In this document: positions 9,602 through 31,759 of the stretch, piece after piece
How the letters are laid out: each line of letters starts with the position of its first letter
Position numbering within the stretch: position 1 is the first letter of the stretch
Origin: Parcubacteria group bacterium
GTDB taxonomy: Bacteria; Patescibacteriota; JABMPQ01
Length of the DNA: 32,160 nucleotides
NCBI GenBank assembly: GCA_043826745.1
Contig: JBDRPV010000052.1
Location: 1 to 32,160 of the forward strand
Reading direction: 5' to 3'
Position numbers and translations under genes: made by a program
Notes under the pieces: model-generated
What the model was told of the DNA's origin: nothing
The model's database searches: none
Seen by the model: the letters and a program-made list of their open reading frames with translations, nothing else

Positions 9602-11482
9602 CTATTTCAATAACTCCCGGCAACTTTTACATACTCCTGCAATATTCAAGCCAATTTCATCTTTCAGCAGTTCATTTTTACCATGTTCGATAAATTTGTC
9701 TGGCAAGCCTAGCCGTTTAACCTTCACATTAGACAGATTATTTTCTTCAAGCAGCTCAAGCACCGCTGAGCCCAGTCCACCAGCTAGAACATTTTCTTCG
9801 ACCGTAACTATTTTGCCACATCGAGCGGCCGACAAAATCATCTCTTTGTCTAGCGGCTTGATAAATCTAGTGTTAATAACAGCCGCCTCAATTCCCTCGC
9901 TAGCTAATTTCTCCGCCGCCTGCTCCGCCACAGCTACCATCGAACCTAGAGCAATAATATTTATATCTTTACCCTCCCGCAATGTCTCTCCTCCGCCGAT
10001 TGGCAATGGTTTTATTTCTCTAGCCAATTCTACCCCCAGCCCTTCGCCTTTAGGATAGCGAATAGCTAGCGGGCCCTCTTTATACTGTTCGGCTGTCTTT
10101 AACATTCGCTGGAGCTCATTTTCATCCTTAGGTGCCATTACTACCATGTTGGGGATATGACGTAAGTAGGAAATATCAAAAGCACCGTGATGAGTCGCCC
10201 CATCATCCCCTACCAAGCCCGCCCGATCGAGAACAAATATCACTGGTAATTTTTGCAAGGCGACATCGTGAATTATTTGATCGTAGGCTCGTTGTAAAAA
10301 GGTGGAATAAATCGCTACCACTGGCCGGCAACCTTGGGTCGCCAAACCAGCCGCAAAAGTAACGGCGTGTTCTTCGGCAATTCCGACGTCGAAGAAGCGG
10401 CGGGGGTATTTTTCTTTAAACTTATCCAAACCCGTCCCCTCCGGCATAGCCGCCGTAATCGCGACTATGTCTTTATTACTGTCAGCTAATTTTAATAGCG
10501 TGCTAGAAAAAACTTGAGTATAAGTTTGATTGGGTTGAGTTTTTTTAGTTTTACTCTGCCCATTTTTCACATCAAACGGTGCCGCCCCGTGAAATTTACT
10601 GGCATTTTTTTCTGCATGTTTATACCCTTTGCCCTTTTGGGTAATAACGTGCAACAAGATTGGCCCTTTGACATTTTTAATATTACGGAAAGTTTGCGTT
10701 AATTCCGCCGGATCATGGCCATCCAGAGGACCAAAATAGCGAAAGCCAAGCTCTTCAAACCAAGCTCCGGGAGCGATAATTGACTTTACTCCCCCTTCAA
10801 CAAGTTCCCCGGTACGCAAAGCCAGTCGTCCTAAGCGATTAGGTAACTTGCGGACTAAGTCACGGGCTTTATCTCTGGTCTTAATCACCCGCGGATCGGA
10901 AATTATTTTATTTAGATACGAAGCGACCGCGCCGACGTTCTCCGAAATCGACATCTTATTATCATTGAGAACCACAATCAAATCAGATTGAGCCGTGCCG
11001 ATTTGGTTGAGGCCTTCCAGAGCCAAGCCGCCGGTCAGTGACCCATCGCCGATCACCGCGACGATTTTTTCTTTTTTCTGCTTGAGATCGCGCGCCTTAG
11101 CCATACCCAGAGCGGCCGATAAAGAAGTCGAGGCGTGACCAACCCCAAAAGCGTCATATTTACTCTCTGTTCGCCGCGGGAAACCGGAAATGCCATCCTG
11201 CTGGCGTAAAGTAGCAAATTTATCCTTGCGTCCAGTGATAATTTTATGAGTATAGCACTGGTGGCCAACGTCCCAGACCAGCTTATCTTGCGGGAAATTA
11301 AAGCTTTTATACAAAGCTAAGGTGAGCTCAACTACGCCTAAATTAGAAGCTAAATGCCCGCCCGTGTCAGCTACCGTGCTAATAATCAACTGGCGGATTT
11401 CCTGAGCTAGTCTTTCTAGCTCTTTGACCGACAGCTTTTTAATGTCAGCTGGACTCTCTATTTTATTGAGAAGTTTTGTCAT
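9602..11482 (-). CDS. dxs: 1-deoxy-D-xylulose-5-phosphate synthase
   Basis: About 626 aa with GGHLASNLGVVELT, the GDGSLTGG ThDP motif and the typical Dxs N-terminus LLNKIESPADIKKLS. I took the start at the ATG at 11482; the track start at 11491 is TTG. Confidence 0.95.
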   Translation of the reverse strand: MTKLLNKIESPADIKKLSVKELERLAQEIRQLIISTVADTGGHLASNLGVVELTLALYKSFNFPQDKLVWDVGHQCYTHKIITGRKDKFATLRQQDGISGFPRRTESKYDAFGVGHASTSLSAALGMAKARDLKQKKEKIVAVIGDGSLTGGLALEGLNQIGTAQSDLIVVLNDNKMSISENVGAVASYLNKIISDPRVIKTRDKARDLVRKLPNRLGRLALRTGELVEGGVKSIIAPGAWFEELGFRYFGPLDGHDPAELTQTFRNIKNVKGPILLHVITQKGKGYKHAEKNASKFHGAAPFDVKNGQSKTKKTQPNQTYTQVFSSTLLKLADSNKDIVAITAAMPEGTGLDKFKEKYPRRFFDVGIAEEHAVTFAAGLATQGCRPVVAIYSTFLQRAYDQIIHDVALQKLPVIFVLDRAGLVGDDGATHHGAFDISYLRHIPNMVVMAPKDENELQRMLKTAEQYKEGPLAIRYPKGEGLGVELAREIKPLPIGGGETLREGKDINIIALGSMVAVAEQAAEKLASEGIEAAVINTRFIKPLDKEMILSAARCGKIVTVEENVLAGGLGSAVLELLEENNLSNVKVKRLGLPDKFIEHGKNELLKDEIGLNIAGVCKSCRELLK

Positions 11483-11504
11483 TTTTATCAATAAAATCTT
11501 TTAT

Positions 11505-11652
11505 GGTTGCTCTAGTGTGCCGAGAAAAACCTTGATCGACCGAGCGGCCCGCCCGCTTAGCGATGCCTGCCCGCTTGCAGCGAGCTGGCGGGCGAAGCAG
11601 AGCGGGCGGGCGTGAAAATCCACCGTGTTTTCGAAGCATAGCTAGAGCAGCC
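11505..11652. repeat. GC-rich long-hairpin element, copy A (between uppS stop and dxs start)
   Basis: Outer arms GGTTGCTCTAG (11505-) and CTAGAGCAGCC (-11652) are complementary. The core at 11541-11610 is 70/70 identical to the reverse complement of 14533-14602. The inner stem is GCCCGCCCGCT/AGCGGGCGGGC. Confidence 0.85.
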
Positions 11653-11657
11653 TGCCC

Positions 11658-12353
11658 CTATTTCCCAAATCTTCTTTGTCGCTCACTATAATCATTTAGA
11701 GCTTTATCTAGCTCCTCCTCATCAAAATCTGGCCAAAGGGCGTCGGTAAAATATAGCTCACTGTAGCTGACTTGCCAAAGGAGAAAATTACTAAGACGAC
11801 GCTCGCCGCCAGTTCGGATTAGTAAATCTGGGTCGGGTCGGCCAGCGGTGTAGAGATTTTTTTCAATCATTTCCGGAGTTATCTCACCGCTCGCACCTGA
11901 ACTAATAATTTGCTCAACAGCGCGGGCTATTTCTTCCCGGGCACCATAATTGAGAGCAACGTTGAGATGTATTTTGTTATTATCTTTTAACAGCTCAACA
12001 GCGTCATTAACTTCTTTTTGTAGGTCTTCCGGTAAATAGCTGAGATCTCCGAGAATTTGCAGTGAACAGCCTAGTTTCTGTAATTTTTTACGCTTCTTTC
12101 TAATAAAATAGCCGAGAAGTTTCATTAGACCTTTGATTTCTTCCGGACTGCGATTTCGATTCTCCGAAGAAAAAGCGTAGACGGTAATAATTTTGACACC
12201 ACGGTGGCCACATTGATCGATGACCTTTTCTAACCGCAAAGAACCCTCCCGATGACCTTCGATCGTCGGCACTCCTTTGGCTTTTGCCCACCGTCGATTG
12301 CCGTCCATGATAAAGGCGACGTGGTGAGGGATGTTATTTTTATTTTCAGACAT
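11658..12353 (-). CDS. uppS: Undecaprenyl-diphosphate synthase (cis-prenyltransferase)
   Basis: HVAFIMDGNRRWA and ERRLSNFLLWQVSYSELYF motifs. ATG at 12353. Confidence 0.95.
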   Translation of the reverse strand: MSENKNNIPHHVAFIMDGNRRWAKAKGVPTIEGHREGSLRLEKVIDQCGHRGVKIITVYAFSSENRNRSPEEIKGLMKLLGYFIRKKRKKLQKLGCSLQILGDLSYLPEDLQKEVNDAVELLKDNNKIHLNVALNYGAREEIARAVEQIISSGASGEITPEMIEKNLYTAGRPDPDLLIRTGGERRLSNFLLWQVSYSELYFTDALWPDFDEEELDKALNDYSERQRRFGK

Positions 12354-12443
12354 AATCAAACAATAGTTATTAGTTGTAAGCTTTCAGTAATCAGTTTTCA
12401 GTTGCGATTTTAAGATCACCCTTAAATTATAACTGATAACTGA

Positions 12444-13505
12444 TTACTGACCACTTTTCTTAATTTCTTTCATCAACTCTCCCACAATCTCACTCTCATC
12501 GACTGTCCGCACCACCTCGCCCTTCCGAAAAATCACCCCTTGCCCTCTACCCCCTGCCACCCCAATATCCGCTTCCCGCGCTTCTCCGGGACCATTTACG
12601 ACACAGCCCATGACGGCTATTTTTAGTGGCTTGTCTATCTCAGCCGTCCGCCGCTCTACTTCTTCCGCCAGACCAATAAGATCGATTTCCGTTCGCCCAC
12701 AAGTAGGACAAGAGATAATTTCCACTCCGCGCTCCCGCAAGCCGAGGGATTTGAGAATTTCCCAGCCTACCCGCACTTCCTCAACTGGATCAGCCGTGAG
12801 CGACACCCGGATCGTATCACCGATCCCCCGTGAGAGCAAGCTGCCAATCCCGACAGCTGATTTGATCGTTCCCGACCGAGTTGTGCCCGCTTCGGTGATT
12901 CCAACGTGGAGCGGATAATCGACTTTGTCTGACAGTAACTCATAAGCCTCAATCGTGCGTGGGACGTTGCTAGCTTTAAGTGATACTACAATGTCGTGAA
13001 AATCTAAGTTTTCTAATATTTTAATATGCCGCTGGGCTGATTCGACCATTCCGGCTGCTGTAGCTTGACCTTTATGTTTTGCGAGAATATCTTTCTCCAG
13101 CGAACCAGCATTGACTCCAATACGAATCGGGATATTTTTCTCTTTAGCCTTATCGACGACTGCTTTTACTTTTTCGTTCGAGCCAATATTGCCTGGATTA
13201 ATTCGTAGCTTGTCCACTCCCTGATCAGCACATTCAAGAGCCAGCTTATAATCAAAATGAATATCAGCTACTAGCGGGATATCTATTTGCCGCTTGATTT
13301 CTCCAATGGCTTTGGCTGCTATCATATCGGGCACAGCCACCCGGATCAACTCACAGCCAGCTTCTTCTAGCTGCTTGATCTGAGCAACGGTCGCTTTCAC
13401 GTCCCGGGTATCAGTATTGCACATAGACTGGATAGCCACCGGAGAGCCACTGCCGATTGCTAGGCCGCCGATTTTGATTTTATTGGTTGTTTTTCTAGTA
13501 CTCAT
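12444..13505 (-). CDS. ispG: 4-hydroxy-3-methylbut-2-enyl-diphosphate synthase (GcpE)
   Basis: 353 aa with QSMCNTDT, the [11 protein letters not shown]-barrel part, and the C-terminal Fe-S ligand segments ISCPTCGR and GCVVNGPGE. Confidence 0.95.
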
Positions 13506-13566
13506 AAGTTTTAAATATACGCCAATCGTAGCCCAAGGCTTAAATTAAAACAATATCTCGTGACAA

Positions 13567-14415
13567 CTAGATAGATTTTACTAAAAACACTTGTTTATAT
13601 TGCTGCTTTAATATATTGAAGGCTTTTTCTGTTTCTGATTGACCCTCCCACACCCCAAACACCGACGGTCCACTGCCACTCATTAGACTTCCCAGCGCTC
13701 CTAACGCCAACATTTTCTCCTTTATCTCACCAATCACTGGATGTTTAGGAATTATCGACTTTTCAAAATCATTGTGTAAATTGTCTATCACGTCAGTCAA
13801 ATTACCATCAGTCAAAGTCGCAATCATTCGCTTGGTTTTTTCACTCTCCTGCCCGACCTGCGCTAGATCCAGACTGCCATAAGCTTCCTTGGTCGAAATA
13901 GCAATTTCCGGAGTGACTATTATTATTTGTAGGCTTAAATTATTTTTCAGCGACCGCACCTTTTCTCCCCGTCGCATTCCCAGCGCTGTCCCGCCACTTA
14001 CTAGAAATGGTACGTCCATACCTAGCTCCGCTGCATATTCTCGCAATATTTCATCTGACAATCTTAGCTCCCACATTTCATTCAGAGCTTTGAGCGTCGC
14101 CGCCCCGTCAGTGCTTCCTCCGGCCAAGCCAGCAGCTACCGGGATTTTTTTGTCGATATAGATATCTAGTCCCTTATTGACACCATGTTTCTGGCGAATC
14201 AGCTCGACCGCCTGATAAACAATATTTTTCTCATCGAGGGGAATTTGCTCAGAATTAGAAGTAATCTTAATCTCACCAGATTTATTTTCCTTAAAATCCA
14301 GCTCATCATACAAATCAACTGCCTGGTAAACGGTCGTCAGTTCGTGATAATCATTGGGCAATTTACCTAAGATATCAAGAGTTAGATTAATTTTGGCGGG
14401 GGCTTTGATTATCAT
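13567..14415 (-). CDS. ispE: 4-diphosphocytidyl-2-C-methyl-D-erythritol kinase
   Basis: APAKINLTLDI N-terminus and the GHMP-kinase loop PVAAGLAGGSTDGAA. I moved the start to the ATG at 14415 (MIIKAPAKINL), because the 55-codon upstream extension in the track reads through repeat copy B. Confidence 0.9.
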   Translation of the reverse strand: MIIKAPAKINLTLDILGKLPNDYHELTTVYQAVDLYDELDFKENKSGEIKITSNSEQIPLDEKNIVYQAVELIRQKHGVNKGLDIYIDKKIPVAAGLAGGSTDGAATLKALNEMWELRLSDEILREYAAELGMDVPFLVSGGTALGMRRGEKVRSLKNNLSLQIIIVTPEIAISTKEAYGSLDLAQVGQESEKTKRMIATLTDGNLTDVIDNLHNDFEKSIIPKHPVIGEIKEKMLALGALGSLMSGSGPSVFGVWEGQSETEKAFNILKQQYKQVFLVKSI

Positions 14416-14428
14416 AAATTTACTCTGT

Positions 14429-14638
14429 GGCCATCTTGGCATTTCTCCGAAAACACGTTGGATTTCCCCGGCGTGGAAATCCAACTCCGTGATCGGCCTC
14501 GCTCCCTCCCGATCAGATCGGGAGAACCGTGCCCCGCCCGCTCTGCTTCGCCCGCCAGCTCGCTGCAAGCGGGCAGGCATCGCTAAGCGGGCGGGCCGCT
14601 CGACCGATCAAGGGTTTTCTCTGGCATACCAAGATGGC
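14429..14638. repeat. GC-rich long-hairpin element, copy B (between ispDF stop and ispE start). Composite of the 70-bp core plus the small hairpin module.
   Basis: Outer arms GGCCATCTTGG (14429-) and CCAAGATGGC (-14638) are complementary. The 70-bp core at 14533-14602 is inverted relative to copy A. The small hairpin module at 14497-14535 matches 30436-30474. Confidence 0.85.
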
Positions 14639-14643
14639 TAGTA

Positions 14644-15816
14644 CTATTTAAAAAGTGAAACAACCGCAAAAACCTGAATCCCCTTTCCTTGACCAAAAGT
14701 AGTCAAACTTTCGCCACTGGTAACTGTAATGCCAACATCGCTTGCACTAACTCCCAGCAGATTAGCAATAACCTTTTTCATAGCCGGAAAGTGCTTTTCC
14801 AACTTTGGCTCTTTGCCTTCGATAGCAATCGAAACATTGCCAACTTTGCAACCTGCTCTTTGAACAAAACTCCTAACCACTCTCACATACTCCTGACTAT
14901 CTTTTATTCCCTGCTTCAAACACATTTTATCAGAATAAGTAGCCAGCGAGCCTTTACCAACTGCGCTGCCCAAAGCATTACAGAGAGCGTGCAAAACAAC
15001 GTCTCCATCTGAATTAGCGGAAAATCCGCGGGGATGATTTACCTTTACTCCACCTAAAATCAAAGGTTTCTTACCCGCAAAGCGATGCGAATCCTGCCCC
15101 AAGCCTATTTTCATACCCGTCACTCGCCTTTTCCCTAACACCGCCCGGGCAAAATCTAAATCGCTCGGATAAGTAATTTTAATATTTTCGGCCGAGCAAA
15201 GCACTACTTTTACCCGCTTGCCCAGCCTCTCCACTAAAGACACATCGTCGGTGCCATAAAAACTGTCTTTATAGGCTTTATCAAAAGCCTCGAGAGCTAA
15301 ACCAAATTTAATCGTTTGTGGTGTCTGCATCGCCCATAATTCACGGCGATCCAAGGTTTCCTGGACCAGACCACTAGTACTCACCCGCTTAATTGTATCG
15401 CGCGCTGGTTGGGCACAGACAGCAGCGCCATATTTACCCGCCTCGCGAATCGAATCAGTGATATCTTTCTGACCCACCAGCAAATTACCGCCATTATGAA
15501 TCAATACTAGATCGGACTTACCCGTCCCCGCCTCCCGCAAATAATTCAGTCCCTGGTAAACCGAGTCTTGCCGCTCCTGACCACCTACTACAATCGCCTC
15601 TACCTTGCCAAATTTATATTTATCAACGATCTTCTCCATGGCTACAATATCATTCTGAGCCGTTATGATGATAATTCTCGCGATACTCCGGTGCTGCTCG
15701 AAAGCTTTGAGTGTATGATAAATTACTGGATATTTATCCAGCTTGAGTAGCACCTTATTTTTCCCCTGTCGCATGCGCCGACCTTTGCCAGCTGCGACGA
15801 TGAGAGCGATGTTCAT
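14644..15816 (-). CDS. ispDF: Bifunctional IspD/IspF (MEP cytidylyltransferase / MEcPP synthase)
   Basis: N-terminal IVAAGKGRRM (IspD). C-terminal GLGQDSHRF and SDGDVVLHAL (IspF metal and substrate motifs). 390 aa. Confidence 0.95.
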   Translation of the reverse strand: MNIALIVAAGKGRRMRQGKNKVLLKLDKYPVIYHTLKAFEQHRSIARIIIITAQNDIVAMEKIVDKYKFGKVEAIVVGGQERQDSVYQGLNYLREAGTGKSDLVLIHNGGNLLVGQKDITDSIREAGKYGAAVCAQPARDTIKRVSTSGLVQETLDRRELWAMQTPQTIKFGLALEAFDKAYKDSFYGTDDVSLVERLGKRVKVVLCSAENIKITYPSDLDFARAVLGKRRVTGMKIGLGQDSHRFAGKKPLILGGVKVNHPRGFSANSDGDVVLHALCNALGSAVGKGSLATYSDKMCLKQGIKDSQEYVRVVRSFVQRAGCKVGNVSIAIEGKEPKLEKHFPAMKKVIANLLGVSASDVGITVTSGESLTTFGQGKGIQVFAVVSLFK

Positions 15817-15850
15817 AATGCATTATTAGACTGCTGAGGGATTAATATTA

Positions 15851-15934
15851 GCTTTTTTTCTGGCTTCGAGAACTCGTCGCCCTCCCGGCAAGACCGGGAG
15901 AACTCCTCAGACATCTCTCCGCTGCGAAAAAAGT
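15851..15934. repeat. Hairpin element, copy E (between dxr stop and ispDF start). Diverged relative of copy F.
   Basis: TTTTCTGGCTTCGAGAACTCGTC parallels TTTTCTGGCTGCGGAACTCGTC of copy F. Central hairpin is CTCCCGG-caaga-CCGGGAG (15882-15900). Flanks CTTTTTT/AAAAAAG are partly complementary. Boundaries are approximate. Confidence 0.6.
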
Positions 15935-15953
15935 AACATCCAACCCCTAATTA

Positions 15954-17090
15954 CTAACTAGCACTTAGGACGGTCTCCCCTGCCCACTCGCTGGCCTGCA
16001 TAATTTCCGCAAAATCCGGCTCAGCCACCACCTCGTGCTTATCCATCGCCTCTTTTATTAATCGGGGAATATCCAAATAGCCAATTTTGCCATCCAAAAA
16101 TAGCATGACTGCTGCTTCATTGGCCGCATTTACCACCGCTGGCATGGTTCCTCCTGCCTTGAGAGCCACAAAAGCATAGGCTAAACAGGGAAAAGCCTCT
16201 AAATCCGGCTTCTCAAAATCCAAACGCGCTACCTCGGTTAAGCTAAAATCCTCGGCTGGTGATCTCTTGTGTGCTGGGTAGGTCAAGGCATACTGGATTG
16301 CAATCCGCATATCGTGAGGGCCAAGCTGAGCCTTGATGCTACCATCAGCAAATTCGACGGCTGAATGCACAATACTCTGCGGATGCACCACCACTTCAAT
16401 TTGCTCCGGGGTGACGTCAAATAGCTGATAAGCTTCGATCACTTCTAGCCCCTTGTTCATTAAAGTAGACGAATCGATGGTGATCTTGCCCCCCATACTC
16501 CAGGTGGGATGATCAAGGGCTTGCTCGAGAGTAATATCAACCAGCTCAGCTAGCTTCTTCCCGCGAAATGGTCCACCCGAGCAAGTGATAATAATCTTTT
16601 TGATCTCCTTCTCTTTCTCCCCGCGCAGACACTGCCAAATAGCGGAATGTTCCGAGTCAACTGGATAAATATTTACTTTCTTCTCGCGGGCTAGCTTCAT
16701 AATAATATTTCCAGCGGCTACCAATGATTCCTTATTAGCCAAAGCAACGTCAATGCCGGCCTTGACCGCTATCATCGTTGGTACAATGCCTGCCACTCCC
16801 GAGAGAGCATTCAAAATCAAATCGGCGCCGGCCTCCTTAACCAGTTCTTCGCTGCTGAACAATATTTGTGTTCGGCCTAAATCGGCAGCGACTAATTCAG
16901 CCCGTTTGCCTTCATCTCCTACCACTACATATTCCGGCTCATATTTCTTAATCTGCTCACGCAATAAATCAACCTTAGTATTAGTCGTCAAAGCCACCAC
17001 GTCAAATTCCCCTGGCAGATTATCAACTACTTCCAGGGCTTGAGTGCCAATTGAGCCAGTTGAGCCAAGAACGGCAATTTTTTTCTTCAT
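15954..17090 (-). CDS. dxr: 1-deoxy-D-xylulose-5-phosphate reductoisomerase
   Basis: The LGSTGSIGTQAL NADPH-binding N-terminus, LANKESLV and DSEHSAIWQC are present. ATG at 17090 (MKKKIAVLG). Confidence 0.95.
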   Translation of the reverse strand: MKKKIAVLGSTGSIGTQALEVVDNLPGEFDVVALTTNTKVDLLREQIKKYEPEYVVVGDEGKRAELVAADLGRTQILFSSEELVKEAGADLILNALSGVAGIVPTMIAVKAGIDVALANKESLVAAGNIIMKLAREKKVNIYPVDSEHSAIWQCLRGEKEKEIKKIIITCSGGPFRGKKLAELVDITLEQALDHPTWSMGGKITIDSSTLMNKGLEVIEAYQLFDVTPEQIEVVVHPQSIVHSAVEFADGSIKAQLGPHDMRIAIQYALTYPAHKRSPAEDFSLTEVARLDFEKPDLEAFPCLAYAFVALKAGGTMPAVVNAANEAAVMLFLDGKIGYLDIPRLIKEAMDKHEVVAEPDFAEIMQASEWAGETVLSAS

Positions 17091-17106
17091 AAATATCACG
17101 TTGTTG

Positions 17107-17204
17107 GAGGGTAGACATTATTCTTTTTCTGGCTGCGGAACTCGTCCCGATAAGATCGGGACTCAAACACCCGCAGCGGGCGAAAAAGAACAATGTCTAC
17201 CCTC
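17107..17204. repeat. Hairpin element, copy F (between ispH stop and dxr start)
   Basis: The 23-nt outer arms at 17107-17129 and 17182-17204 are complementary, with a single A/C position that would be a U-G pair in the minus-strand (operon) transcript. Inner stem is CTGCGG/CCGCAG. Central hairpin is GTCCCGAT-aag-ATCGGGAC (17144-17162). Confidence 0.8.
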
Positions 17205-17210
17205 ATGTTG

Positions 17211-18050
17211 TTATAATTTACTCAATCTTTCCGCCACTTCCTCCACTAACTCCCGCGGCGTCGAAGCACCGGCCGTTATCCCCACGCTGGCCATTCCCTT
17301 AAACCAATCGTCCTCTAATTCAGCGGCCGTGTCAATCCAATAAGTTTTGTTATTTAATCCCTGGCAAATATGATAGAGTCGAGTCGTATTGCCGCTAGTT
17401 TTCGAGCCTACTACTAGCATAACCTCATTATTCTGGGCTAACTCCTTCGCTTCCTGCTGGTGGCCGCGGGTGGATTCACAAATGGTGTTAAATACTTTGA
17501 CGTCGGCGAATCGCCGCTTTAAAGCCGCCACAATTTCTGTAAAATACTCCTCATCCTGCGTAGTTTGCGACACTACCCCGATTTTAGCTTCTGCGGACAA
17601 ATCCAGCCGGGCTACTTCCTCAACTGAGGCCACTACTGCCGCCTGCCAGTCCACTGCTCCATTAATGCCTTTCACTTCAATATGATCCTGATCGCCAATG
17701 ATCACTATCTCCCGGCCTTCTGATTGCAACTTTTTGGCTAAATTGTGCACAACTGTTACCTTCGGGCAAGTGGTATCAATAATATTTAGGCCTTTCGCCG
17801 TCGCTTCTTGTAGTATTTTGGGATAAATACCGTGGGCAGTGATAATCACTGTCCCTTTCTCGGCCTCAGCTAAAGACTTAATTACCTTAATCCCCTGCTC
17901 TTTCAGCTTCTCCACTACCGTTTCATTGTGCACCAAATTACCCAACATATAGAGTGGTTGGGGGATGTCAGGACTAATCTCGGCACAAGTTTTAACGGCC
18001 CGATCAACGCCAAAGCAAAAGCCAGCGTGACGGGAAATATTTACTTTCAT
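17211..18050 (-). CDS. ispH: 4-hydroxy-3-methylbut-2-enyl diphosphate reductase (LytB)
   Basis: 279 aa. The three spaced Cys contexts typical of IspH are present (GFCFGV, TTCPKV, NTICEST), as is the LVHNETVV segment. Confidence 0.95.
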   Translation of the reverse strand: MKVNISRHAGFCFGVDRAVKTCAEISPDIPQPLYMLGNLVHNETVVEKLKEQGIKVIKSLAEAEKGTVIITAHGIYPKILQEATAKGLNIIDTTCPKVTVVHNLAKKLQSEGREIVIIGDQDHIEVKGINGAVDWQAAVVASVEEVARLDLSAEAKIGVVSQTTQDEEYFTEIVAALKRRFADVKVFNTICESTRGHQQEAKELAQNNEVMLVVGSKTSGNTTRLYHICQGLNNKTYWIDTAAELEDDWFKGMASVGITAGASTPRELVEEVAERLSKL

Positions 18051-18064
18051 GGCTAGATTATATT

Positions 18065-18126
18065 TACCCTGAGCCTGCCGCGCCCGCTGCGCTCTCGCGC
18101 AAGCGAGGCGGGCGGGTCTAAGGGTA
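18065..18126. repeat. Short GC-rich hairpin element, copy G (14 nt upstream of the ispH start)
   Basis: Arms TACCCTGAG (18065-18073) and CTAAGGGTA (18118-18126) enclose CCTGCCGCGCCCGCTGCGCTC..GCGAGGCGGGCGGG. This shares the CCCGCCCGC/GCGGGCGGG theme of copies A and B. Confidence 0.6.
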
Positions 18127-18175
18127 GTTCGACGGGCTCACCATTAACAAAATCACCCTAGCACAAATTTGCCAT

Positions 18176-18224
18176 AAAAAAAAGCGGGTGACAGGTGATG
18201 CACGAAGCATGTACCTGTACCCGC
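18176..18224 (-). terminator. Strong intrinsic terminator after the GC-rich ORF
   Basis: The minus strand reads GCGGGTACAGGTACATGCttcgtGCATCACCTGTCACCCGC followed by 8 T. The stem is about 16 bp and imperfect. Confidence 0.8.
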
Positions 18225-18248
18225 TAAGATAAGATTTGAGCAGATGTT

Positions 18249-19793
18249 TTAGAGGATCCTTTCGGATCCGTTGGAGGGATGAGTGCGGGTTTCGAACTCC
18301 CGCGCCTTGCCCTGCCGATATCGGGCGCAGCCGTAAAGCTCGAAGCAGCGCCAACCGCAGCTCGGCTTGCAATACGGCGAGCTCTGCCGATGGCATGTCT
18401 GAGACTTGTCGAACGGCTGACCCAGCAAAGTCAGAACCGTGATCACATATACGTCCTGCGCCGTAAGGCTGCAAGGCGGCATGTCCGGGTTGGTGTTCCA
18501 AGCGTTGCCGCAGGCCGTTTTGAACGGCGCCAGGAAGATGGCGCTCAGTACTTTGCCATTGAGGTCAAAGTACACGTTCCCGACCTGTTCCAGCGGATCG
18601 ATCAGCTCTGCGCGCCCATCCGGGTCACTCAGCCTGATCTCCGCCGCTCTAAGCGCCGCCGCCACCCGGTTGAGAACCATCTTCGAACGGTCCCGCTCCG
18701 TGTGTACCTGGCTTCCCTCCTTGGTTCTGGCCGTCCAGCTCCCCACGGAGACGTTGAAGTGGGTGTCGGATCGGCGGTGCTGGATGATGACCGTCTCGAC
18801 CACCGTCAGCTTGCGCTGAGCAGCGTACTCGTTGGCCTTCATCCGCGCGACCGAGCCAAAGCGATACGACTCGGACTGGCCCGCGACCACAACACACTTG
18901 GACTCCACCCACCTCACCCCATTGGCGAAAACCACCTGGGGAATGTCCAGCACGCGGAACTGGGCCGTTTCAAAGTCCCGCAGCGCCAGCTTCCACTCCA
19001 CCTCCATCCGATCCAACGCCAGCCGGCACTCATCTTGGAACTCCTTGCGCTGCTGCTTGCGAACCTTGGTTAGCTTGAGACCAGCCACCATCGGGTCCAT
19101 GAGGAAGTAGTTTTCGTTAGCGATGTCGGGACTGGCCGTATTGGTCCGCTTGGCCTTGTCCTGGGTCAGAGCGAAAACGCCCTTGAAGGCGTAAACGCAC
19201 TGCACGACAACCTTGAGGGGGTTGTTCCGATACAGCAAGTTCCAGCCAGTGATCAGGTTCCGGAGGGTGCGGGCCGTGTTGGGCCAGGAGGAGTTCCGAT
19301 AGTCCGGATCGCGAGCGATCGCGGTGCCCTGCTTATCCTGGGCGGCGATCACCTGGGCGATGCCGAGGAACCACTCGTACCCCTTCTTCAAGCCGACCAG
19401 CTCCGTCAGAATCTCGATGGTGCAGAGACTGTCCTGGCGCCCGTGGTGGTCGAGAAACCCGCCACCACAGTCAACGAAGAGGTAGCCGATCTGCTCGAGC
19501 TCCTGGGCCAAGCGACCCTGCTCAATCAGTCTCACCACGTCAAGCTTGGCCTCCTTGACCCTCTTCTCGTCCTGCCAATCCTCAATGCGCAAAGAACCTG
19601 AAGAGATCACCTTGAGGCGGTACTTTTTCTCGAGAGCGATCCGGCAAACAAAGCCGAGGGCGATGATCACCAGTGAAACCAAACACTCAATGTCCGGCCA
19701 GAAGTGGATGACTGCTGTGTGAAACTCTCCTTTTTCGGTTTGGGGTTTGACTACCTGAAACTTCTTGCTTTTCTTGTTCTTGTCCTTGGCCAC
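18249..19793 (-). CDS. Hypothetical 514-aa protein of foreign, high-GC composition. Weak DHH/MYG1-like phosphoesterase motifs in the N-terminal half.
   Basis: The uninterrupted 1.5-kb ORF has strong GC3 bias. GTG start is preceded by GGAGG. HFWPDIECLVS and FVDCGGGFLDHHG resemble the H-x-x-x-D-E and VDxGG...DHH motifs of the DHH/UPF0160 (MYG1) superfamily. The rest is unrecognised. The last ~50 aa are Cys/Arg-rich. Confidence 0.7.
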   Translation of the reverse strand: MAKDKNKKSKKFQVVKPQTEKGEFHTAVIHFWPDIECLVSLVIIALGFVCRIALEKKYRLKVISSGSLRIEDWQDEKRVKEAKLDVVRLIEQGRLAQELEQIGYLFVDCGGGFLDHHGRQDSLCTIEILTELVGLKKGYEWFLGIAQVIAAQDKQGTAIARDPDYRNSSWPNTARTLRNLITGWNLLYRNNPLKVVVQCVYAFKGVFALTQDKAKRTNTASPDIANENYFLMDPMVAGLKLTKVRKQQRKEFQDECRLALDRMEVEWKLALRDFETAQFRVLDIPQVVFANGVRWVESKCVVVAGQSESYRFGSVARMKANEYAAQRKLTVVETVIIQHRRSDTHFNVSVGSWTARTKEGSQVHTERDRSKMVLNRVAAALRAAEIRLSDPDGRAELIDPLEQVGNVYFDLNGKVLSAIFLAPFKTACGNAWNTNPDMPPCSLTAQDVYVITVLTLLGQPFDKSQTCHRQSSPYCKPSCGWRCFELYGCARYRQGKAREFETRTHPSNGSERIL

Positions 19794-25143: not shown

Positions 25144-25223
25144 AGTACAAAAAACAACCAAGTCACAAACACCAACCCTCCCCCTATCACCTAAAACCTA
25201 TAACCTAACAATCTATCCTCCCC

Positions 25224-26820: not shown

Positions 26821-26932
26821 GCTGCCGCCTTAGTGTATTTTGAAAACCGTATTTCGATCGAGTGGGCATGGATCCCCCGACCTGCCTGCCGGGGAAAACT
26901 GACGTGTTTTCAAGATGCATTATGGCAGCAGC
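26821..26932. repeat. Long-hairpin element, copy C (related to copies A and B)
   Basis: About 27-bp outer helix, GCTGCCGCCTTAGTGTATTTTGAAAAC with GTTTTCAAGATGCATTATGGCAGCAGC. It contains 3 G-T wobble positions and 2 mismatches as read on the plus strand. The inner GAAAAC/GTTTTC and CGTGTTTTC segments are shared with A and B. Confidence 0.7.
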
Positions 26933-27274: not shown

Positions 27275-30200
27275 ATGAAAGATCAGATGAAAATTCGCTC
27301 TACGCGAAACAAACGTCGTTTTCCTGACTACTTCTTAGGTAAAGAGGTACCTCTCTTTGTAAAGGGAGTAGCGTTCTTACTGGTAATTGTTGTTGTTTTA
27401 TTTATTATCGACACGATTGGGGTTACCTATAAGCCGACAGTTAATGTCGATGCTTATAACACCCAGCACAACATCTCTCCTGACCTTTACGGCTATAGCG
27501 TTGGTTCTTCTTTCAAATATGATGATTCCTTCGTTTCGGCTACGAAAAATAACGCCCAGTCACTTCGAGTGATGGACGAGTATGAGCCTGGCGCTCGAAT
27601 GTTAGTTAAAGTCGAGGATGGCGCCTACAAAGTATTAGCCTCAGACAATAAACCATATGACCCTAATAAAGAATACCTGGTTAAGATCAAGGTTCAGGGT
27701 AGTAATATGCGAGTCTACGTTGATAATAAAGAAATTTTTAATGTTAATGATGCTAAATTCGGCCAGGGAGAAATTGGCTTAACTTCCAGCCACAACCAAA
27801 ATACCTATTTTGACAATGTAGTGGTCACGGATAGTTCGGGTAGGACTATTCTGTCCGATTATTTCTCTAGTGACTCTGGACAGTGGGATAATGGTGACCT
27901 TCCTAGCTTTTACAGCCAGGGTGATTGGAAAATTGCCGATGGCAAAATGTACCATAGTGGCCGCGAAAGTATAACTTTAAAAAAAGCTGGCAACCATGAC
28001 TGGCGTGATTATACAATCCAAGCCAAAATTAAATCTACCGCTAATAATACCTTCGATGCCGGATACATTGGTTTAGTTGTTCGCTACAATGGGGCTTTAA
28101 ATAATTATCGTTTTCTCTGGCGCTCCCCGACTCGTCAGCCTTATGAATCAAACAATCCCTGGGGAATAGCTGATTTTGATGGTCAACTGCGTTTTGCCCA
28201 AGACAGTAACATGCAGCCGACCATGGTTGTTAACATGCGCGATACTTCGCCGCAAGCTGCCGCCGAGCTGGTACGAAAAATGAACGTTCAGGAAAAACGA
28301 AATATTAAATACTGGGAATTAGGTAATGAAATTTGGGCCTGGAGTGACTCTTATATTGATAACAAGATGTACGCCCAAAAGATTAAGGAATTCTCTAAGG
28401 CAATGAAGGCGGTTGATCCTAATATCAAAATAGGTGCCTCTTTACTATTAGGATTTTCCGATTGGGACGTAGAAGTGATAAAACGTTCGGCACCCTATTT
28501 CGATTTCATCAGTTTTCATTATTATCCATATAATATTCAAAGTGGTATCTCTGATAATCATATTTTGGCTAGTCCTTACGCTTTTGGCTACAATTACCAA
28601 AACAACTATGGCCAAGGCAAGGGAGTAGTGGAAAATGCTTATGATACTATCAAAAAATACGCCCCGGGAAATGAGTCCCGGATTGAGCTGGCAGTGACCG
28701 AGTATAATACTGGTGACGCCAATCAAGGTACTGACTTAATCTACGGTCTGACAACAGCTGATCTTCTCGGCCAAGCCACTACCAAAAAGCGGGTTAAACT
28801 AATGCAATTCCACGCTCTCATGAACGAGAGTCAGTGGCACTGGGGTTCTTATACGGCTGATTACCGCCCCAAACCAACCGCTTTAGCTATCTCTTTATAT
28901 AGTCAACATTTTGGTGACAAATCACTCTCAACTTCGGTTGACAATTCACCCACTTTCTCGGTACCAGCCAAAGGTAACGTCCCCAATCTCAATAATGTTC
29001 CCTATCTGACTTCCTATGCCAGTCGCAGTAGCGATGATAAAACACTCTACCTGGCCGTTGTAAACAAGCACTCCGTGTCTGATATGAGCACCACCGTTAA
29101 AATAGATAATGCTTCGATTGGCGGACAAGCCAAGGTTTATACCATGAACGGTCCTTCGATTCATTCAAACAATAACGAATCGGATCAGGTAAAAATTACT
29201 GAATCATCTATTAGTAACGCTGGCTCTAACTTTAAATATAATTTCCCGGCTCATTCAGTCACTATCCTAGAGCTGAAAATTAATAAGCTTAATAAGCCAG
29301 TTAGAACTTCTCCTTCTACGCCTGATAAGGATGATAATAAGCAACCTAACCCTAACCAAGATGATCAAGATAACAACGACCAAGACGACGCCTGGTATGA
29401 GGAAGTGGAACAGGTTGGTGGCCCTGATGGCTCAGATTCAATTAACGAGACCAAAATCGTTGCTGCTGCCGGTTCCGGAGGTAATCCACATGTTAAGTCG
29501 TTTGATTCCCTAGGTAATCGCAAGCAGGCTAATTTCTTCGCTTACGACGAAAATTTCCGTGGTGGTTCGACTATCGCTTATGGCGATATTGACGGTGATG
29601 GCCAAGCGGAAATAGTAACCGGAGCGGGGGCGGGCGGTGGACCACATATTAGAGCCTTCGAGGAAAATGGGCAAGAAATTGCTAACTTTTTTCCTTTTCA
29701 CGAAAGCTTTCGCGGTGGTATTAACGTTGCCACTGGCGATACTGATGGTGACGGCCGGGACGAAATTGCCGTCGCGCAGGCCTCTCAGGGTGAAGCTTGG
29801 ATCAAAGTCTATCAAGCTGATCAAGCCCGCACAGTCGTTGGCGAATGGAACGCTTTTGGCTCAGTTGAGTCGGGAGCTGATATAGCTATGGGCGATGTTG
29901 ATGGTGACGGTAAAGACGAAGTTATTGTCGGCGCTGGTTATGGTGGTGGACCACATGTTAGAATATATGAAGCCGACGGACGTCTAAAACCATTATCCTT
30001 TTTTGCTTTTCACCCTGCCTACCGCGGCGGATTATCAGTTGCCGCTGGTGATGTCGATGGTGATGGTAAAGACGAAATCGGTGTAGCGCAAGTCGGCCAA
30101 GAGGAAGCTTGGACAAAAATATATCGCTTTAATAACCAACACACCGTCGTTGGAGAATGGCGTGTTTATGGTGACATTCCGGTTGGTGCTAATATCGCCC

Positions 30201-30367
30201 TGGGAGATATCGATGATGACGGTAAGGCAGAATTAGTAGCTGGTCCCGGCTTAGGCGGGCGACCAATGGTAGTGATGTATGAAGTAGATGGCGAAAAATT
30301 GCCAGTCGGTTTTTACGTATTTAGTGAAGAATTTTATGGTGGGTTGGATGTGGCGGTGAAGGGATAA
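27275..30367 (+). CDS. Large membrane-anchored surface protein: two LamG/DUF1080-like modules, a clan GH-A glycoside hydrolase, a beta-sandwich, an acidic linker and an FG-GAP beta-propeller
   Basis: 1030 aa with an N-terminal TM. MRVYVDNKEIFNVNDAKFGQGEIGLTSS..YFDNVVV and GYIGLVVRY..YRFLW are concanavalin/DUF1080-like. YWELGNEIW and LAVTEYN are candidate acid/base and nucleophile Glu contexts. Five GD(I/T/V)D(G/D)DG(K/Q/R)(A/D)E FG-GAP/Ca-binding-like loops occur between residues ~750 and 1030. Confidence 0.75.
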   Translation: MKDQMKIRSTRNKRRFPDYFLGKEVPLFVKGVAFLLVIVVVLFIIDTIGVTYKPTVNVDAYNTQHNISPDLYGYSVGSSFKYDDSFVSATKNNAQSLRVMDEYEPGARMLVKVEDGAYKVLASDNKPYDPNKEYLVKIKVQGSNMRVYVDNKEIFNVNDAKFGQGEIGLTSSHNQNTYFDNVVVTDSSGRTILSDYFSSDSGQWDNGDLPSFYSQGDWKIADGKMYHSGRESITLKKAGNHDWRDYTIQAKIKSTANNTFDAGYIGLVVRYNGALNNYRFLWRSPTRQPYESNNPWGIADFDGQLRFAQDSNMQPTMVVNMRDTSPQAAAELVRKMNVQEKRNIKYWELGNEIWAWSDSYIDNKMYAQKIKEFSKAMKAVDPNIKIGASLLLGFSDWDVEVIKRSAPYFDFISFHYYPYNIQSGISDNHILASPYAFGYNYQNNYGQGKGVVENAYDTIKKYAPGNESRIELAVTEYNTGDANQGTDLIYGLTTADLLGQATTKKRVKLMQFHALMNESQWHWGSYTADYRPKPTALAISLYSQHFGDKSLSTSVDNSPTFSVPAKGNVPNLNNVPYLTSYASRSSDDKTLYLAVVNKHSVSDMSTTVKIDNASIGGQAKVYTMNGPSIHSNNNESDQVKITESSISNAGSNFKYNFPAHSVTILELKINKLNKPVRTSPSTPDKDDNKQPNPNQDDQDNNDQDDAWYEEVEQVGGPDGSDSINETKIVAAAGSGGNPHVKSFDSLGNRKQANFFAYDENFRGGSTIAYGDIDGDGQAEIVTGAGAGGGPHIRAFEENGQEIANFFPFHESFRGGINVATGDTDGDGRDEIAVAQASQGEAWIKVYQADQARTVVGEWNAFGSVESGADIAMGDVDGDGKDEVIVGAGYGGGPHVRIYEADGRLKPLSFFAFHPAYRGGLSVAAGDVDGDGKDEIGVAQVGQEEAWTKIYRFNNQHTVVGEWRVYGDIPVGANIALGDIDDDGKAELVAGPGLGGRPMVVMYEVDGEKLPVGFYVFSEEFYGGLDVAVKG

Positions 30368-30517
30368 GTGGTCATTCAGTCTATCACGAAGACACGACTG
30401 TTTTTCCCAGCGAGAAAAACAGTCTCGGGTTTTGACCTCGCTCTCTCCCGATCAGAATCGGGAGAACCATGCCCGCTCGGCCAAAACACGGTCTTCTTAG
30501 ACAGACCGAATGACCAC
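30368..30517. repeat. Long-hairpin element, copy D, starting on the nucleotide after the stop codon of the 1030-aa gene
   Basis: Outer arms GTGGTCATTC (30368-30377) and GAATGACCAC (30508-30517) are complementary, and the arms extend further with two A/C positions. The internal module at 30436-30474 matches 14497-14535 with 2 substitutions and 1 indel. Confidence 0.8.
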
Positions 30518-30522
30518 TTGAT

Positions 30523-30549
30523 AAAAAGGGGTTTAGAGACCTCTTTTTT
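30523..30549. terminator. Bidirectional intrinsic terminator shared by the convergent 1030-aa gene and the GT4 gene
   Basis: AAAAA-GGGGT-ttagag-ACCTC-TTTTTT. The T-run overlaps the GT4 stop codon (30548-30550). Confidence 0.6.
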
Positions 30550-31759
30550 AAATACCACGATATATTTCCATTATAGAGTCATAATACTTCTCCGGCGTAA
30601 ACTCGCGGGCAACGTAGCGACGAGCCCTCTCTCCTATTTTCTCTAAACTAGCCTGATCGGCCAGTGCTTGTTTAATTTTATCAGCCAATTCATCAACATC
30701 TCCAGCCTCAAACAAATACCCAGTCTCCCCTTCCTTAACTACCTCTGGTAACGCTCCGATACGTGAGGCAATTACTGGTTTACCCTGAGCGTAGGCTTCG
30801 GTGATTGACAAGCCAAAAGTCTCATACGACTCGGAAGGCACCACTATTAAACTAGCGCCCGCAATAGCCCGTTGCAGCTCCCCACCAGTCAGAAATCCCA
30901 TAAATTCTACCTGATCCAAGCTCAGCTTCTCTTTTTGTGTCCATAAATCATTCTCCAGAGGACCATTACCAGCAATTTTCAACTTAACCCCTCCAACCTG
31001 AGCCATCGCTTGGAGCAGAGTTGCTACTCCCTTTTCCCGTGATAACCGACCCAGATATAAGATATAATCACCACTGTACTGAGGCTCTATTGTTTGACAG
31101 TCAATAAAATGCGGCACAACCACTAATTTCTCTTTAGGAAAACCAAACTCAACTAGTTTATCGCGCAGAAAAACGCTAGGACAAATAAACTTATCAACAT
31201 TATTTTTATAAATCCGCAGCAAACGATGAATATACATCTCTGTCATATTCACCAAGCTGGCTCCATAAGAATCTTTGACACAACGACGCCGCACGCAATT
31301 ATAGTACCGATACCTCTTACACTTTTCACATACCTCTCCCTGTGAATAAAAAAGATAAGCGGGGCACATTAATTTAAAATCATGAACGGTCATTACAATC
31401 GGCACGCCCCTTTTCTTTAAGGCTGATAAAATAGAAGGAGACAACTGATGGTAGATATTGTGGACATGAGCAATGTCGGGTTTAGTTTTTTCCACCAAAG
31501 CCGCTATTTTCCGCTTAGCCTCCAACGAATAAATTATCCGGCTAGCCGTCTTGAGCTTATGAGAAGTCGAGCTTGGATCGGCAATGTCAACGTTGCTGAC
31601 AAAATACTGACTGTAGCGAGAAGTTTTATTTCTCCGATCAGCCATAGTAAAGGGTATCACTTCATGTCCTCTTTTCTCCAGCAATTCTCCCAAATCAAAA
31701 TAATGACGCTCTGCTCCGCCTTTTAGATAATGGAATTTATTGGCTAGTAAAATTTTCAT
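30548..31759 (-). CDS. Glycosyltransferase family 4 (GT-B, retaining)
   Basis: 403 aa. The C-terminal domain has LGRLSREKG, PSESYETFGLSITEAYAQGKPVIAS and EGETGYLF (E-x7-E region). Confidence 0.85.
   Translation of the reverse strand: MKILLANKFHYLKGGAERHYFDLGELLEKRGHEVIPFTMADRRNKTSRYSQYFVSNVDIADPSSTSHKLKTASRIIYSLEAKRKIAALVEKTKPDIAHVHNIYHQLSPSILSALKKRGVPIVMTVHDFKLMCPAYLFYSQGEVCEKCKRYRYYNCVRRRCVKDSYGASLVNMTEMYIHRLLRIYKNNVDKFICPSVFLRDKLVEFGFPKEKLVVVPHFIDCQTIEPQYSGDYILYLGRLSREKGVATLLQAMAQVGGVKLKIAGNGPLENDLWTQKEKLSLDQVEFMGFLTGGELQRAIAGASLIVVPSESYETFGLSITEAYAQGKPVIASRIGALPEVVKEGETGYLFEAGDVDELADKIKQALADQASLEKIGERARRYVAREFTPEKYYDSIMEIYRGI

Follow-up and report, generated by a model that had tools for sequence, protein, structure and literature searches.

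The segment at 11505-11652 of the window, the whole 32,160-nt stretch of DNA analysed here, is shown to be a damaged member of a family of structured repeats in Patescibacteria/Parcubacteria. The repeat is interspersed, measures ~150 nt and has the entire hairpin as its unit. We consider it fairly probable that this is a family whose stem evolves by compensatory change and which works in single-stranded form, probably as RNA.

A structured repeat in the gaps of the MEP-pathway operon

The window has a GC content of ~43% and its host genome is of the Patescibacteria/Parcubacteria type; the encoded IspDF protein is 87% identical to proteins named 'Patescibacteria group bacterium' and 83% identical to proteins named 'Parcubacteria group bacterium' at NCBI. 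A cyanobacterial origin, guessed from hairpins built of heptamer repeats, was ruled out, as the nearest relatives are Patescibacteria/Parcubacteria MAGs. Neither a blastn comparison with plasmids nor a pattern scan of viral contigs gave a match. Beyond the close relatives (at least 75% identity), the next IspDF homologues are only ~50% identical and nearly all are named Woesearchaeota or Nanoarchaeota (DPANN archaea), which suggests that this gene may have been transferred between episymbiont lineages.

A complete MEP-pathway operon (dxs, uppS, ispG, ispE, ispDF, dxr and ispH) occupies 9602-18050 on the minus strand, with seven MEP genes and uppS together as a single operon of a Patescibacteria genome, and a long hairpin is present in nearly all of its gaps. 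Pfam analysis of 20 ORFs of the 32 kb window detected no transposase, integrase or reverse transcriptase. Elsewhere in the window, the stretch at 18118-19793 is GC-rich (57-64%, compared with ~43% in the remainder) and contains an ORF of 514 aa without a Pfam match; upstream of ispH, L016 has a similarly sized gene that also lacks one. At 27275-30367, a secreted-type protein of 1030 aa is encoded, whose FG-GAP repeats correspond to 156-nt tandem units in the gene, especially at 29468-30242.

A search with covariance model R2 (filters off) identified four family members in the window: copies D (149 bits), B (110 bits), A (32 bits, E 5e-6) and C (26 bits, E 2e-4). Two further elements, E and F, are short-form relatives, and every copy is intergenic (Table 1). 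Copy A, the flagged element, folds at -84.4 kcal/mol and copy B at -129 kcal/mol. Compared with the intact A-locus copy of a relative (L008), copy A has gained a 63-nt GC-rich hairpin, and an internal loss of 62 nt has removed P4, half of P5 and the 3' strand of P3 (helices named below). The same GC-rich hairpin is found in copy B and, by alignment, is missing from the relative's A copy; the insert region of A spans 89 nt that are 97% complementary to 14533-14621 in B. Copy C holds half a copy of a small GC palindrome (CCTGCCTGCCGG).

Table 1. Members of the repeat family in the window, their short-form relatives and the parts of copies A and B discussed in the text.
Feature	Position	Strand	Context or description
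Copy A (flagged element)	11505..11652	+	Between dxs start and uppS stop; degraded
A: P1 5' arm	11505..11521	+	GGTTGCTCTAG distal, then TGTGCC inner box; fits consensus GGYTRCTYTGRTRTGCY
A: P1 3' arm	11636..11652	+	Terminates in CTAGAGCAGCC
A: nested GC-rich hairpin	11548..11610	+	Insert between core GAGCGG and GCACGG
Copy B	14430..14638	-	Full-length element plus GC hairpin, between ispDF stop and ispE start
B: nested GC-rich hairpin	14533..14595	-	Same insert as in A
B: P4 hairpin TTCTCCCGATCTGATCGGGAGGG	14504..14526	-	Most conserved helix of the family
B: P5 hairpin GTTGGATTTCC-ACGCCGG-GGAAATCCAAC	14457..14485	-	
Copy C	26821..26932	+	Internally deleted; divergent intergenic region upstream of FG-GAP gene
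Copy D	30366..30519	-	Intact; between convergent FG-GAP (+) and GT4 (-) genes
Copy E (short form)	17107..17204	-	Between ispH and dxr; 23-bp arms, inner stem, P4-like hairpin
Copy F (short form)	15838..15947	-	Between dxr and ispDF

Elements E and F represent a second, shorter repeat type with conserved 23-nt arms (RGGGTNRAYATTRYTCTTTTTC), an inner stem and a P4-like hairpin. In copy E, the 23-nt arms match at 96% and the element scores 18.7 bits with R2 (E 0.011), while copy F is kept at the orthologous site in four relatives. Beyond the window, elements of this type occur at L016:4195-4325, L023:1265-1389 and L007:1650-1760. In the ispH-dxr gap of the latter relative, an ORF (L007:2902-3333) occupies the site where the window has element E. 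Judged by eye, its sequence resembles that of a DUF559/Vsr-type endonuclease; the ORF is flanked by CCTCCCCTCC...GGAGGGGAGG hairpins and, according to the ORF listing, continues in frame into dxr.

Still smaller palindromes are nested within the repeats. These are GC-rich and lie in the P4 and P5 loops or in the core, and they include a perfect 20-mer (CCTGCCTGCCGGCAGGCAGG) with its variants as well as the 63-nt composite hairpin of copies A and B. A further one lies at 26877-26896 of the window, and others at L004:7640-7665, L005:5795-5825, L016:2955-2980 and 11205-11230, L002:3770-3800 and L007:8405-8450. Their presence or absence among orthologous copies indicates that they behave as a separate, tiny mobile layer. 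A different class of long, AT-rich hairpins consists of heptamer-like repeats of the TCAGTAA/TCAGTTA and TTAGGTT types (window 12384-12450, 355-406, and 2872-2899 with 25184-25211; L022:164-296). One such hairpin fills the ispG-uppS gap, and in L022 a similar one sits in the gap that holds the F element in other lineages.

A three-way junction supported by covariation

The repeat is closed by a long helix, P1, of 15-28 bp. Inward of P1 lie an internal loop (GGAG/CGAG), helix P2 (GAAAAC/GUUUUC) and a three-way junction, of which one arm comprises P3, an asymmetric loop (GAGCGGGCAYGG / GAGCGAG) and hairpin P4 (UUCUCCCG-loop-CGGGAGA), while the other is hairpin P5 with the loop ACGCUGG. Relative to dinucleotide shuffles, the fold has z-scores of -7.75 for copy A and -10.96 for copy D, and it is still strongly non-random when DNA energy parameters are used (z -9.64). 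The unpaired motifs are nearly invariant among copies. Pairing of the junction AGCG with CGCU in the P5 loop, which would form a pseudoknot, is speculative, as the sequence variants lend it no covariation support.

To assemble a larger set of copies, GTDB genomes were scanned with the P4 motif, which yielded copies in three MAGs, two of them Patescibacteria/Parcubacteria and one labelled Margulisiibacteriota, a label that may be a binning error. A metagenome scan identified nine further stretches; both large scans matched exact patterns and so capture close variants only. The orthologous loci of five relatives came from contigs that encode homologues of IspDF and GT4. With a covariance model derived from five copies, 18 non-redundant full-length copies were recovered from the window and related Patescibacteria contigs.

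Across the 18 copies, 95.3% of paired cells are occupied by pairs, compared with 70.4% after shuffling and 34-46% in controls with slid partners, and 50 of the 53 pairs have changed on both sides in an alignment that was fitted to the model. The covariation score was 0.706, compared with 0.228 for shuffled alignments (none of 500 shuffles reached 0.706) and ~0.1 for the slid controls; these copies come from about ten source organisms, several closely related, so the counts are not independent and the shuffle statistics overstate independence. A first alignment of five copies, made with plain MAFFT, already had 32 of 53 pairs covarying. Covarying helices together with near-invariant unpaired motifs are the signature of a selected structure, not of a plain palindrome.

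A search of Rfam 15, by gathering threshold and by E-value, gave no matching family for the repeat, and the sole match in the window to pass its gathering threshold was a tRNA. The speF leader was rejected as a candidate, with 20.6 bits against a threshold of 37, an unmatched structure and no match for the L002 copy. A divergent clade of the repeat (L011:5064-6753 and L010:1527-1680) has a P1 of just 9-11 bp, bracketed by conserved AAAGCGAG on the 5' side and CGAGC on the 3' side. L011 has three of its copies in three successive gaps between genes; each is antisense to the genes, and a single P1 arm runs into the final codons of a gene.

Copy-specific arms share one consensus

The distal arms of copies A, B, C and D (9-11 nt) differ among copies and pair within each copy, as the preliminary description had stated. 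In copy A, GGTTGCTCTAG (11505-11515) pairs with CTAGAGCAGCC (11642-11652) through ten Watson-Crick pairs and one U.G. In copy B, the pairing of GCCATCTTGG (14430-14439) with CCAAGATGGC (14629-14638) is perfect, whereas that of GCTGCCGCC (26821-26829) with GGCAGCAGC (26924-26932) in copy C includes one C.A mismatch. In copy D, GTGGTCATTC and GAATGACCAC form part of a perfect 20-bp P1 (30366-30385 with 30500-30519).

When 13 Patescibacteria copies were aligned by their 5' arms, anchored where P1 ends on the inner side, a consensus (GGYTRCTYTGRTRTGCY) emerged with positional information to -16. The inner inverted box (CTGRTRTGCY / RGYAYRYCAG) is semi-conserved, and the outer 8 nt are conserved solely as a purine/pyrimidine pattern. 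Over all paralog pairs, these outer 8 nt comprise 373 identities, 255 transitions and 100 transversions, compared with 200, 181 and 347, respectively, when positions are shuffled within arms. Transitions thus lead transversions by 2.55 to 1 at near-saturating divergence. Copies A and B of the window illustrate this with one identity, seven transitions and no transversions, while copy C matches the purine/pyrimidine pattern by eye, as does copy D given one 1-nt indel.

Given this common consensus and the dominance of transitions, the distal arms are part of the repeat rather than foreign flank, contrary to the refuting case named in the preliminary description, in which they would be unrelated flanking sequence. 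Its statement that the arms differ completely is right as to their appearance; they are not unrelated, since A and B differ by transitions only and the arms follow one consensus. The distal arms are the outer part of P1; they descend from one ancestral arm and have diverged locus by locus through G:C <-> G.U <-> A:U steps. Divergence by this route never breaks the pair, which is why the arms look unrelated and are complementary all the same. The proposal that stems which diverged while staying paired reflect selection for a long helix is upheld by the paired fraction, the double changes and the transition-dominated arms.

Selection acts on one strand

Each copy was oriented by its asymmetric core, which places the 'canonical' strand on plus for A and C and on minus for B, D, E and F. 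The canonical strand outfolds its complement in six of six window copies. Overall, it carries 45 G.U against 11 A.C, and within P1 the ratio is 30 to 3, spread across 11 of 14 P1 columns, with as many as seven G.U in a single P1. The wobble evidence had previously appeared mixed as to the transcribed strand, a view that does not survive orientation by the core.

Relative to co-directional flanking genes, ~6 copies are sense and 9-10 are antisense; in the MEP operon, the canonical strand of A is antisense and that of B is sense. The G.U:A.C ratio is 16:3 in antisense copies and 15:6 in sense copies. Selection therefore acts on one strand, set by the core, regardless of the direction of the flanking genes. 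Given the numbers of sense and antisense copies, a cis role in operon mRNA that depends on the canonical strand cannot hold for all copies. A dedicated promoter for the canonical strand was considered and dropped, as -10-like hexamers are not enriched upstream of it (9 versus 8 of 18). No orientation bias relative to GC skew was seen within the window.

This asymmetry bears on whether the repeat could be a pure DNA palindrome, kept perfect by template switching ('quasi-palindrome correction') or by arm-to-arm conversion and devoid of any single-strand function. Such a process would fit the deletion-prone nature of long palindromes, which is observed here, and arms do recombine, as shown by flips of core versus arm and by the swapped arms at the F locus between the window and a relative. 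It predicts strand-symmetric mismatches, however, rather than ratios of 45:11 overall and 30:3 in P1, it would not forbid transversions, which transitions outnumber 2.55 to 1, and it is at odds with the strong conservation of the unpaired motifs. We regard it as very improbable.

From these sequence patterns, we infer that the active form is single-stranded. RNA is favoured as its identity by the many G.U pairs (up to seven per P1), by RNA-like loops together with covarying helices, and by the position of copies between cistrons. A role as single-stranded DNA is possible and is the main rival. In that case a strand-specific HUH/Y1 enzyme might act on the repeat as on a REPIN or an IS200/IS605-type element, or the structure might form during replication, and several observations are compatible with this: the structure is strand-specific and independent of flanking transcription, a promoter signal was not found, the fold is non-random with DNA parameters (z -9.64) and the multi-copy life style includes deletion and conversion. 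We nevertheless judge it unlikely, as a hairpin of DNA would suffer far more from up to seven G.T per P1 than one of RNA, and neither REP doublets nor the end hairpins of IS608 resemble the three-way junction with its conserved loops. The window, the only 32 kb of the genome that is visible, contains no RAYT- or TnpA-like gene, and the copies in it show no orientation bias against GC skew.

Inheritance, loss and core replacement at orthologous loci

At the B locus (the ispDF-ispE gap), P1 starts 4-6 nt past the ispDF stop codon in five lineages. The arms here read GCCATC in the window, GCCGCC in the remnant of relative 1, GTCGCC in L016, GTCACC in L022 and GTTGCT/GTTACT on the two sides of L019; these arms are taken as orthologous from their position and from short stretches of sequence, which are similar to the family consensus as well. 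The arm pairs GCCATC:GCCATC (window) and GTCGCC:GTCGCC (L016) differ by substitutions on both sides. At the A locus (the uppS-dxs gap), a copy is present in four of the four lineages examined, with arms GGTTGCT, GGCTACT and GGCCGGT.

Two orthologous sites appeared to be 'empty'. At the B site of relative 1, one arm and the first bases of the element (GCCGCCTTGGCGTGCCTC) are joined to a downstream flank like that of L016. At the D site of L024, whose GT4 protein is 91% identical, only a 15-nt spacer is present, whereas the more distant L026 (GT4 74%) retains a damaged copy there, recognisable by its homologous arm and by the same P5. The B remnant with its shared flank and the retention of D in the more distant L026 identify both sites as deletions. 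The lone B arm of relative 1 had raised the idea of an inverted target duplication upon insertion, which was rejected because the remnant consists of the arm, TGCCTC and the L016 downstream flank and so reflects deletion. A short terminator-like hairpin with T/A runs flanking both sides lies between copy D and the GT4 gene (30524-30550), and it is kept in L024, L026 and L027, where D is absent or damaged. The copies occupy fixed intergenic positions, are vertically inherited and are lost by near-precise deletion.

The core behaves differently from the stem that encloses it. At the A locus and at the B locus alike, the core of the window (and, at A, that of relative 1) points the opposite way to the core of L016/L019. 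Core identity reaches 89% between window B and the A copy of relative 1, which are different loci within one lineage, but is 67% when window B is compared with its same-locus counterparts in L016 and L019; the three L016 copies have cores that are 81-87% identical. The window and relative 1 have exchanged arms at the F locus with no change in the orientation of the core, which places breakpoints inside P1. Window B carries an A-type core, flipped, within a B-locus stem, and overwriting by recombination would be the simplest account of this. The A-type core may have overwritten the B-locus core with the near-palindromic inner stems serving as inverted homology.

These moving cores also raise the possibility that a mobile core enters, or replaces the apex of, pre-existing locus-specific palindromes (terminator-like), so that the outer stems are host sequence. 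Cores are indeed more alike within a genome than between orthologous loci and are flipped at A and B, apex insertions do happen in these genomes, as the small GC palindromes in P4 and P5 loops attest, and some long hairpins are plain, with no core (window 12384-12450; the F locus of L022). Set against this, the distal arms across loci follow one consensus with a strict purine/pyrimidine pattern, and the L010/L011 clade has conserved motifs (AAAGCGAG and CGAGC) outside its variable helix. The preliminary description had looked to core-less palindromes in relatives as the expected empty sites, and neither of the two 'empty' orthologous sites holds one, both being deletions. We therefore consider this account improbable: the part of the earlier proposal that concerns insertion is not supported, given the shared arm consensus and the deletions. 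Its underlying idea is partly borne out, since cores do move relative to stems, as the flipped A-type core of window B shows.

An ordinary MITE whose terminal repeats have diverged would account for a small, non-coding, multi-copy, intergenic element with a semi-conserved inner box (CTGRTRTGCY / RGYAYRYCAG) and for short forms (E/F) with conserved 23-nt arms. No direct repeats were found in the 15-nt flanks of the 18 copies, taken in register with the P1 base, and the window has no transposase, in agreement with the earlier view that this is not a classical MITE. In addition, all internal helices covary, which is not required of transposase-driven MITEs, and no pair of copies is more than 90% identical except the converted A/B pair, leaving no trace of recent transposition. 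We give this explanation very little weight.

Damaged copies persist (A, C and the D of L026), as do losses (the B locus of relative 1 and D in L024), so the family looks more like a selfish repeat than an indispensable RNA. At one contig end (L003:5733-6070, JAHJQX010000033.1), the final 317 nt jump from ~83% to 98.7% identity with the window, and the hybrid element at the switch point has non-complementary arms. This is most likely an assembly chimera at the repeat between two co-existing strains; an A-B inversion in a relative, suggested by this hybrid, was discounted as evidence because the identity switch makes a chimera probable.

A model for repeat function

Taken with the preferred reading of a single-stranded, probably RNA-borne repeat family, these data are compatible with a model in which the canonical strand would act as a single-stranded nucleic acid, most likely RNA from read-through transcription. 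REP, ERIC and Correia elements provide examples of a long intercistronic stem that can form a barrier affecting processing or stability, and the stem described here might do the same between its cistrons. The conserved loops could form a binding platform for a putative protein that would also favour copying of the core. A more specific idea, which we hold only tentatively, is that the repeat is a new class of structured element in the Candidate Phyla Radiation (CPR), the uncultured lineage to which Patescibacteria belong. It would be either a three-way-junction ncRNA with a dedicated protein as its ligand or a mobile element of a non-autonomous kind. In the latter variant, the core alone would be copied by structure-guided conversion into resident hairpins, in either orientation, and neither terminal repeats nor target duplications would be involved.

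The genomes of Patescibacteria are very small and hold little DNA to spare, yet in this lineage structured repeats of 150-220 nt are kept in most gaps of the MEP operon and elsewhere. The covariation is unusually clean (50 of 53 pairs, with almost only transitions in the outer stem) and Rfam has no model for it, so the repeat is a ready candidate for a new family of RNAs or for a new way in which repeats spread. Complete genomes could be used to trace how cores are replaced and flipped in place while the stems around them are conserved. For genome scanning in general, complementary termini that seem 'unrelated' deserve a test for a purine/pyrimidine pattern before a palindromic target is invoked, and repeats of this kind also produce assembly chimeras between co-existing strains, as in L003.

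Comparison with known structured repeats

The repeat is of the structured, interspersed, intergenic kind, none of which seems to have been described in this phylum; a literature search for a CPR repeat of this type found nothing relevant. Like classical MITEs, it is non-coding, small and multi-copy, and its E/F relatives have conserved 23-nt inverted arms. It differs from them in the absence of target-site duplications and of a transposase in the window, in termini whose outer 8 nt are conserved just as a purine/pyrimidine pattern, and in its covarying helices.

Integron attC sites share recognition by structure, copy-specific imperfect inverted repeats and function on one strand. The outer part of attC (R''/R') is conserved and its inner part varies, which is the reverse of the arrangement here. 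The window copies and their neighbours show no RYYYAAC / GTTRRRY cores, cassette array or intI, and the adjoining genes are MEP-pathway and cell-wall genes.

Very small palindromic dispersed repeats nested in larger hairpin repeats were reportedly described in Nostoc by Elhai et al. in 2008. The 20-nt CCTGCCTGCCGGCAGGCAGG and the 63-nt GC hairpin in P4/P5 loops and core are similar in this respect, a comparison that covers the nested mini-palindromes alone and not the 150-nt element, and phylum and sequences differ.

ERIC/IRU, the Correia elements of Neisseria (NEMIS) and bcr1 of Bacillus cereus are 100-170 nt long, intergenic, often within operons and found in both orientations. Their long stem-loops influence how mRNA is processed or how stable it is, and compensatory substitutions have been reported for bcr1. 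The present repeat resembles them as a multi-copy, intergenic, long stem-loop that is backed by compensatory substitutions. In those families the termini are conserved and target duplications are usual (TA for Correia, TTTAT for bcr1), whereas target duplications are not seen here, the host phylum is another one, and there is no relationship in sequence or in Rfam.

REP/REPIN sequences (Pseudomonas and E. coli, with RAYT) are likewise short, intergenic, multi-copy hairpins that are thought to act in single-stranded form; no RAYT was found in the 32 kb of the window or in the 6-15 kb pieces of relatives. Compensatory changes on both sides of the hairpin are common in REP/REPIN sequences (PMC3116915, 'The replicative unit'). 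The two differ in what is conserved: a REPIN is a conserved doublet of 20-40-nt REPs around a variable spacer, whereas the present repeat has a conserved, asymmetric three-way-junction core within a variable outer stem.
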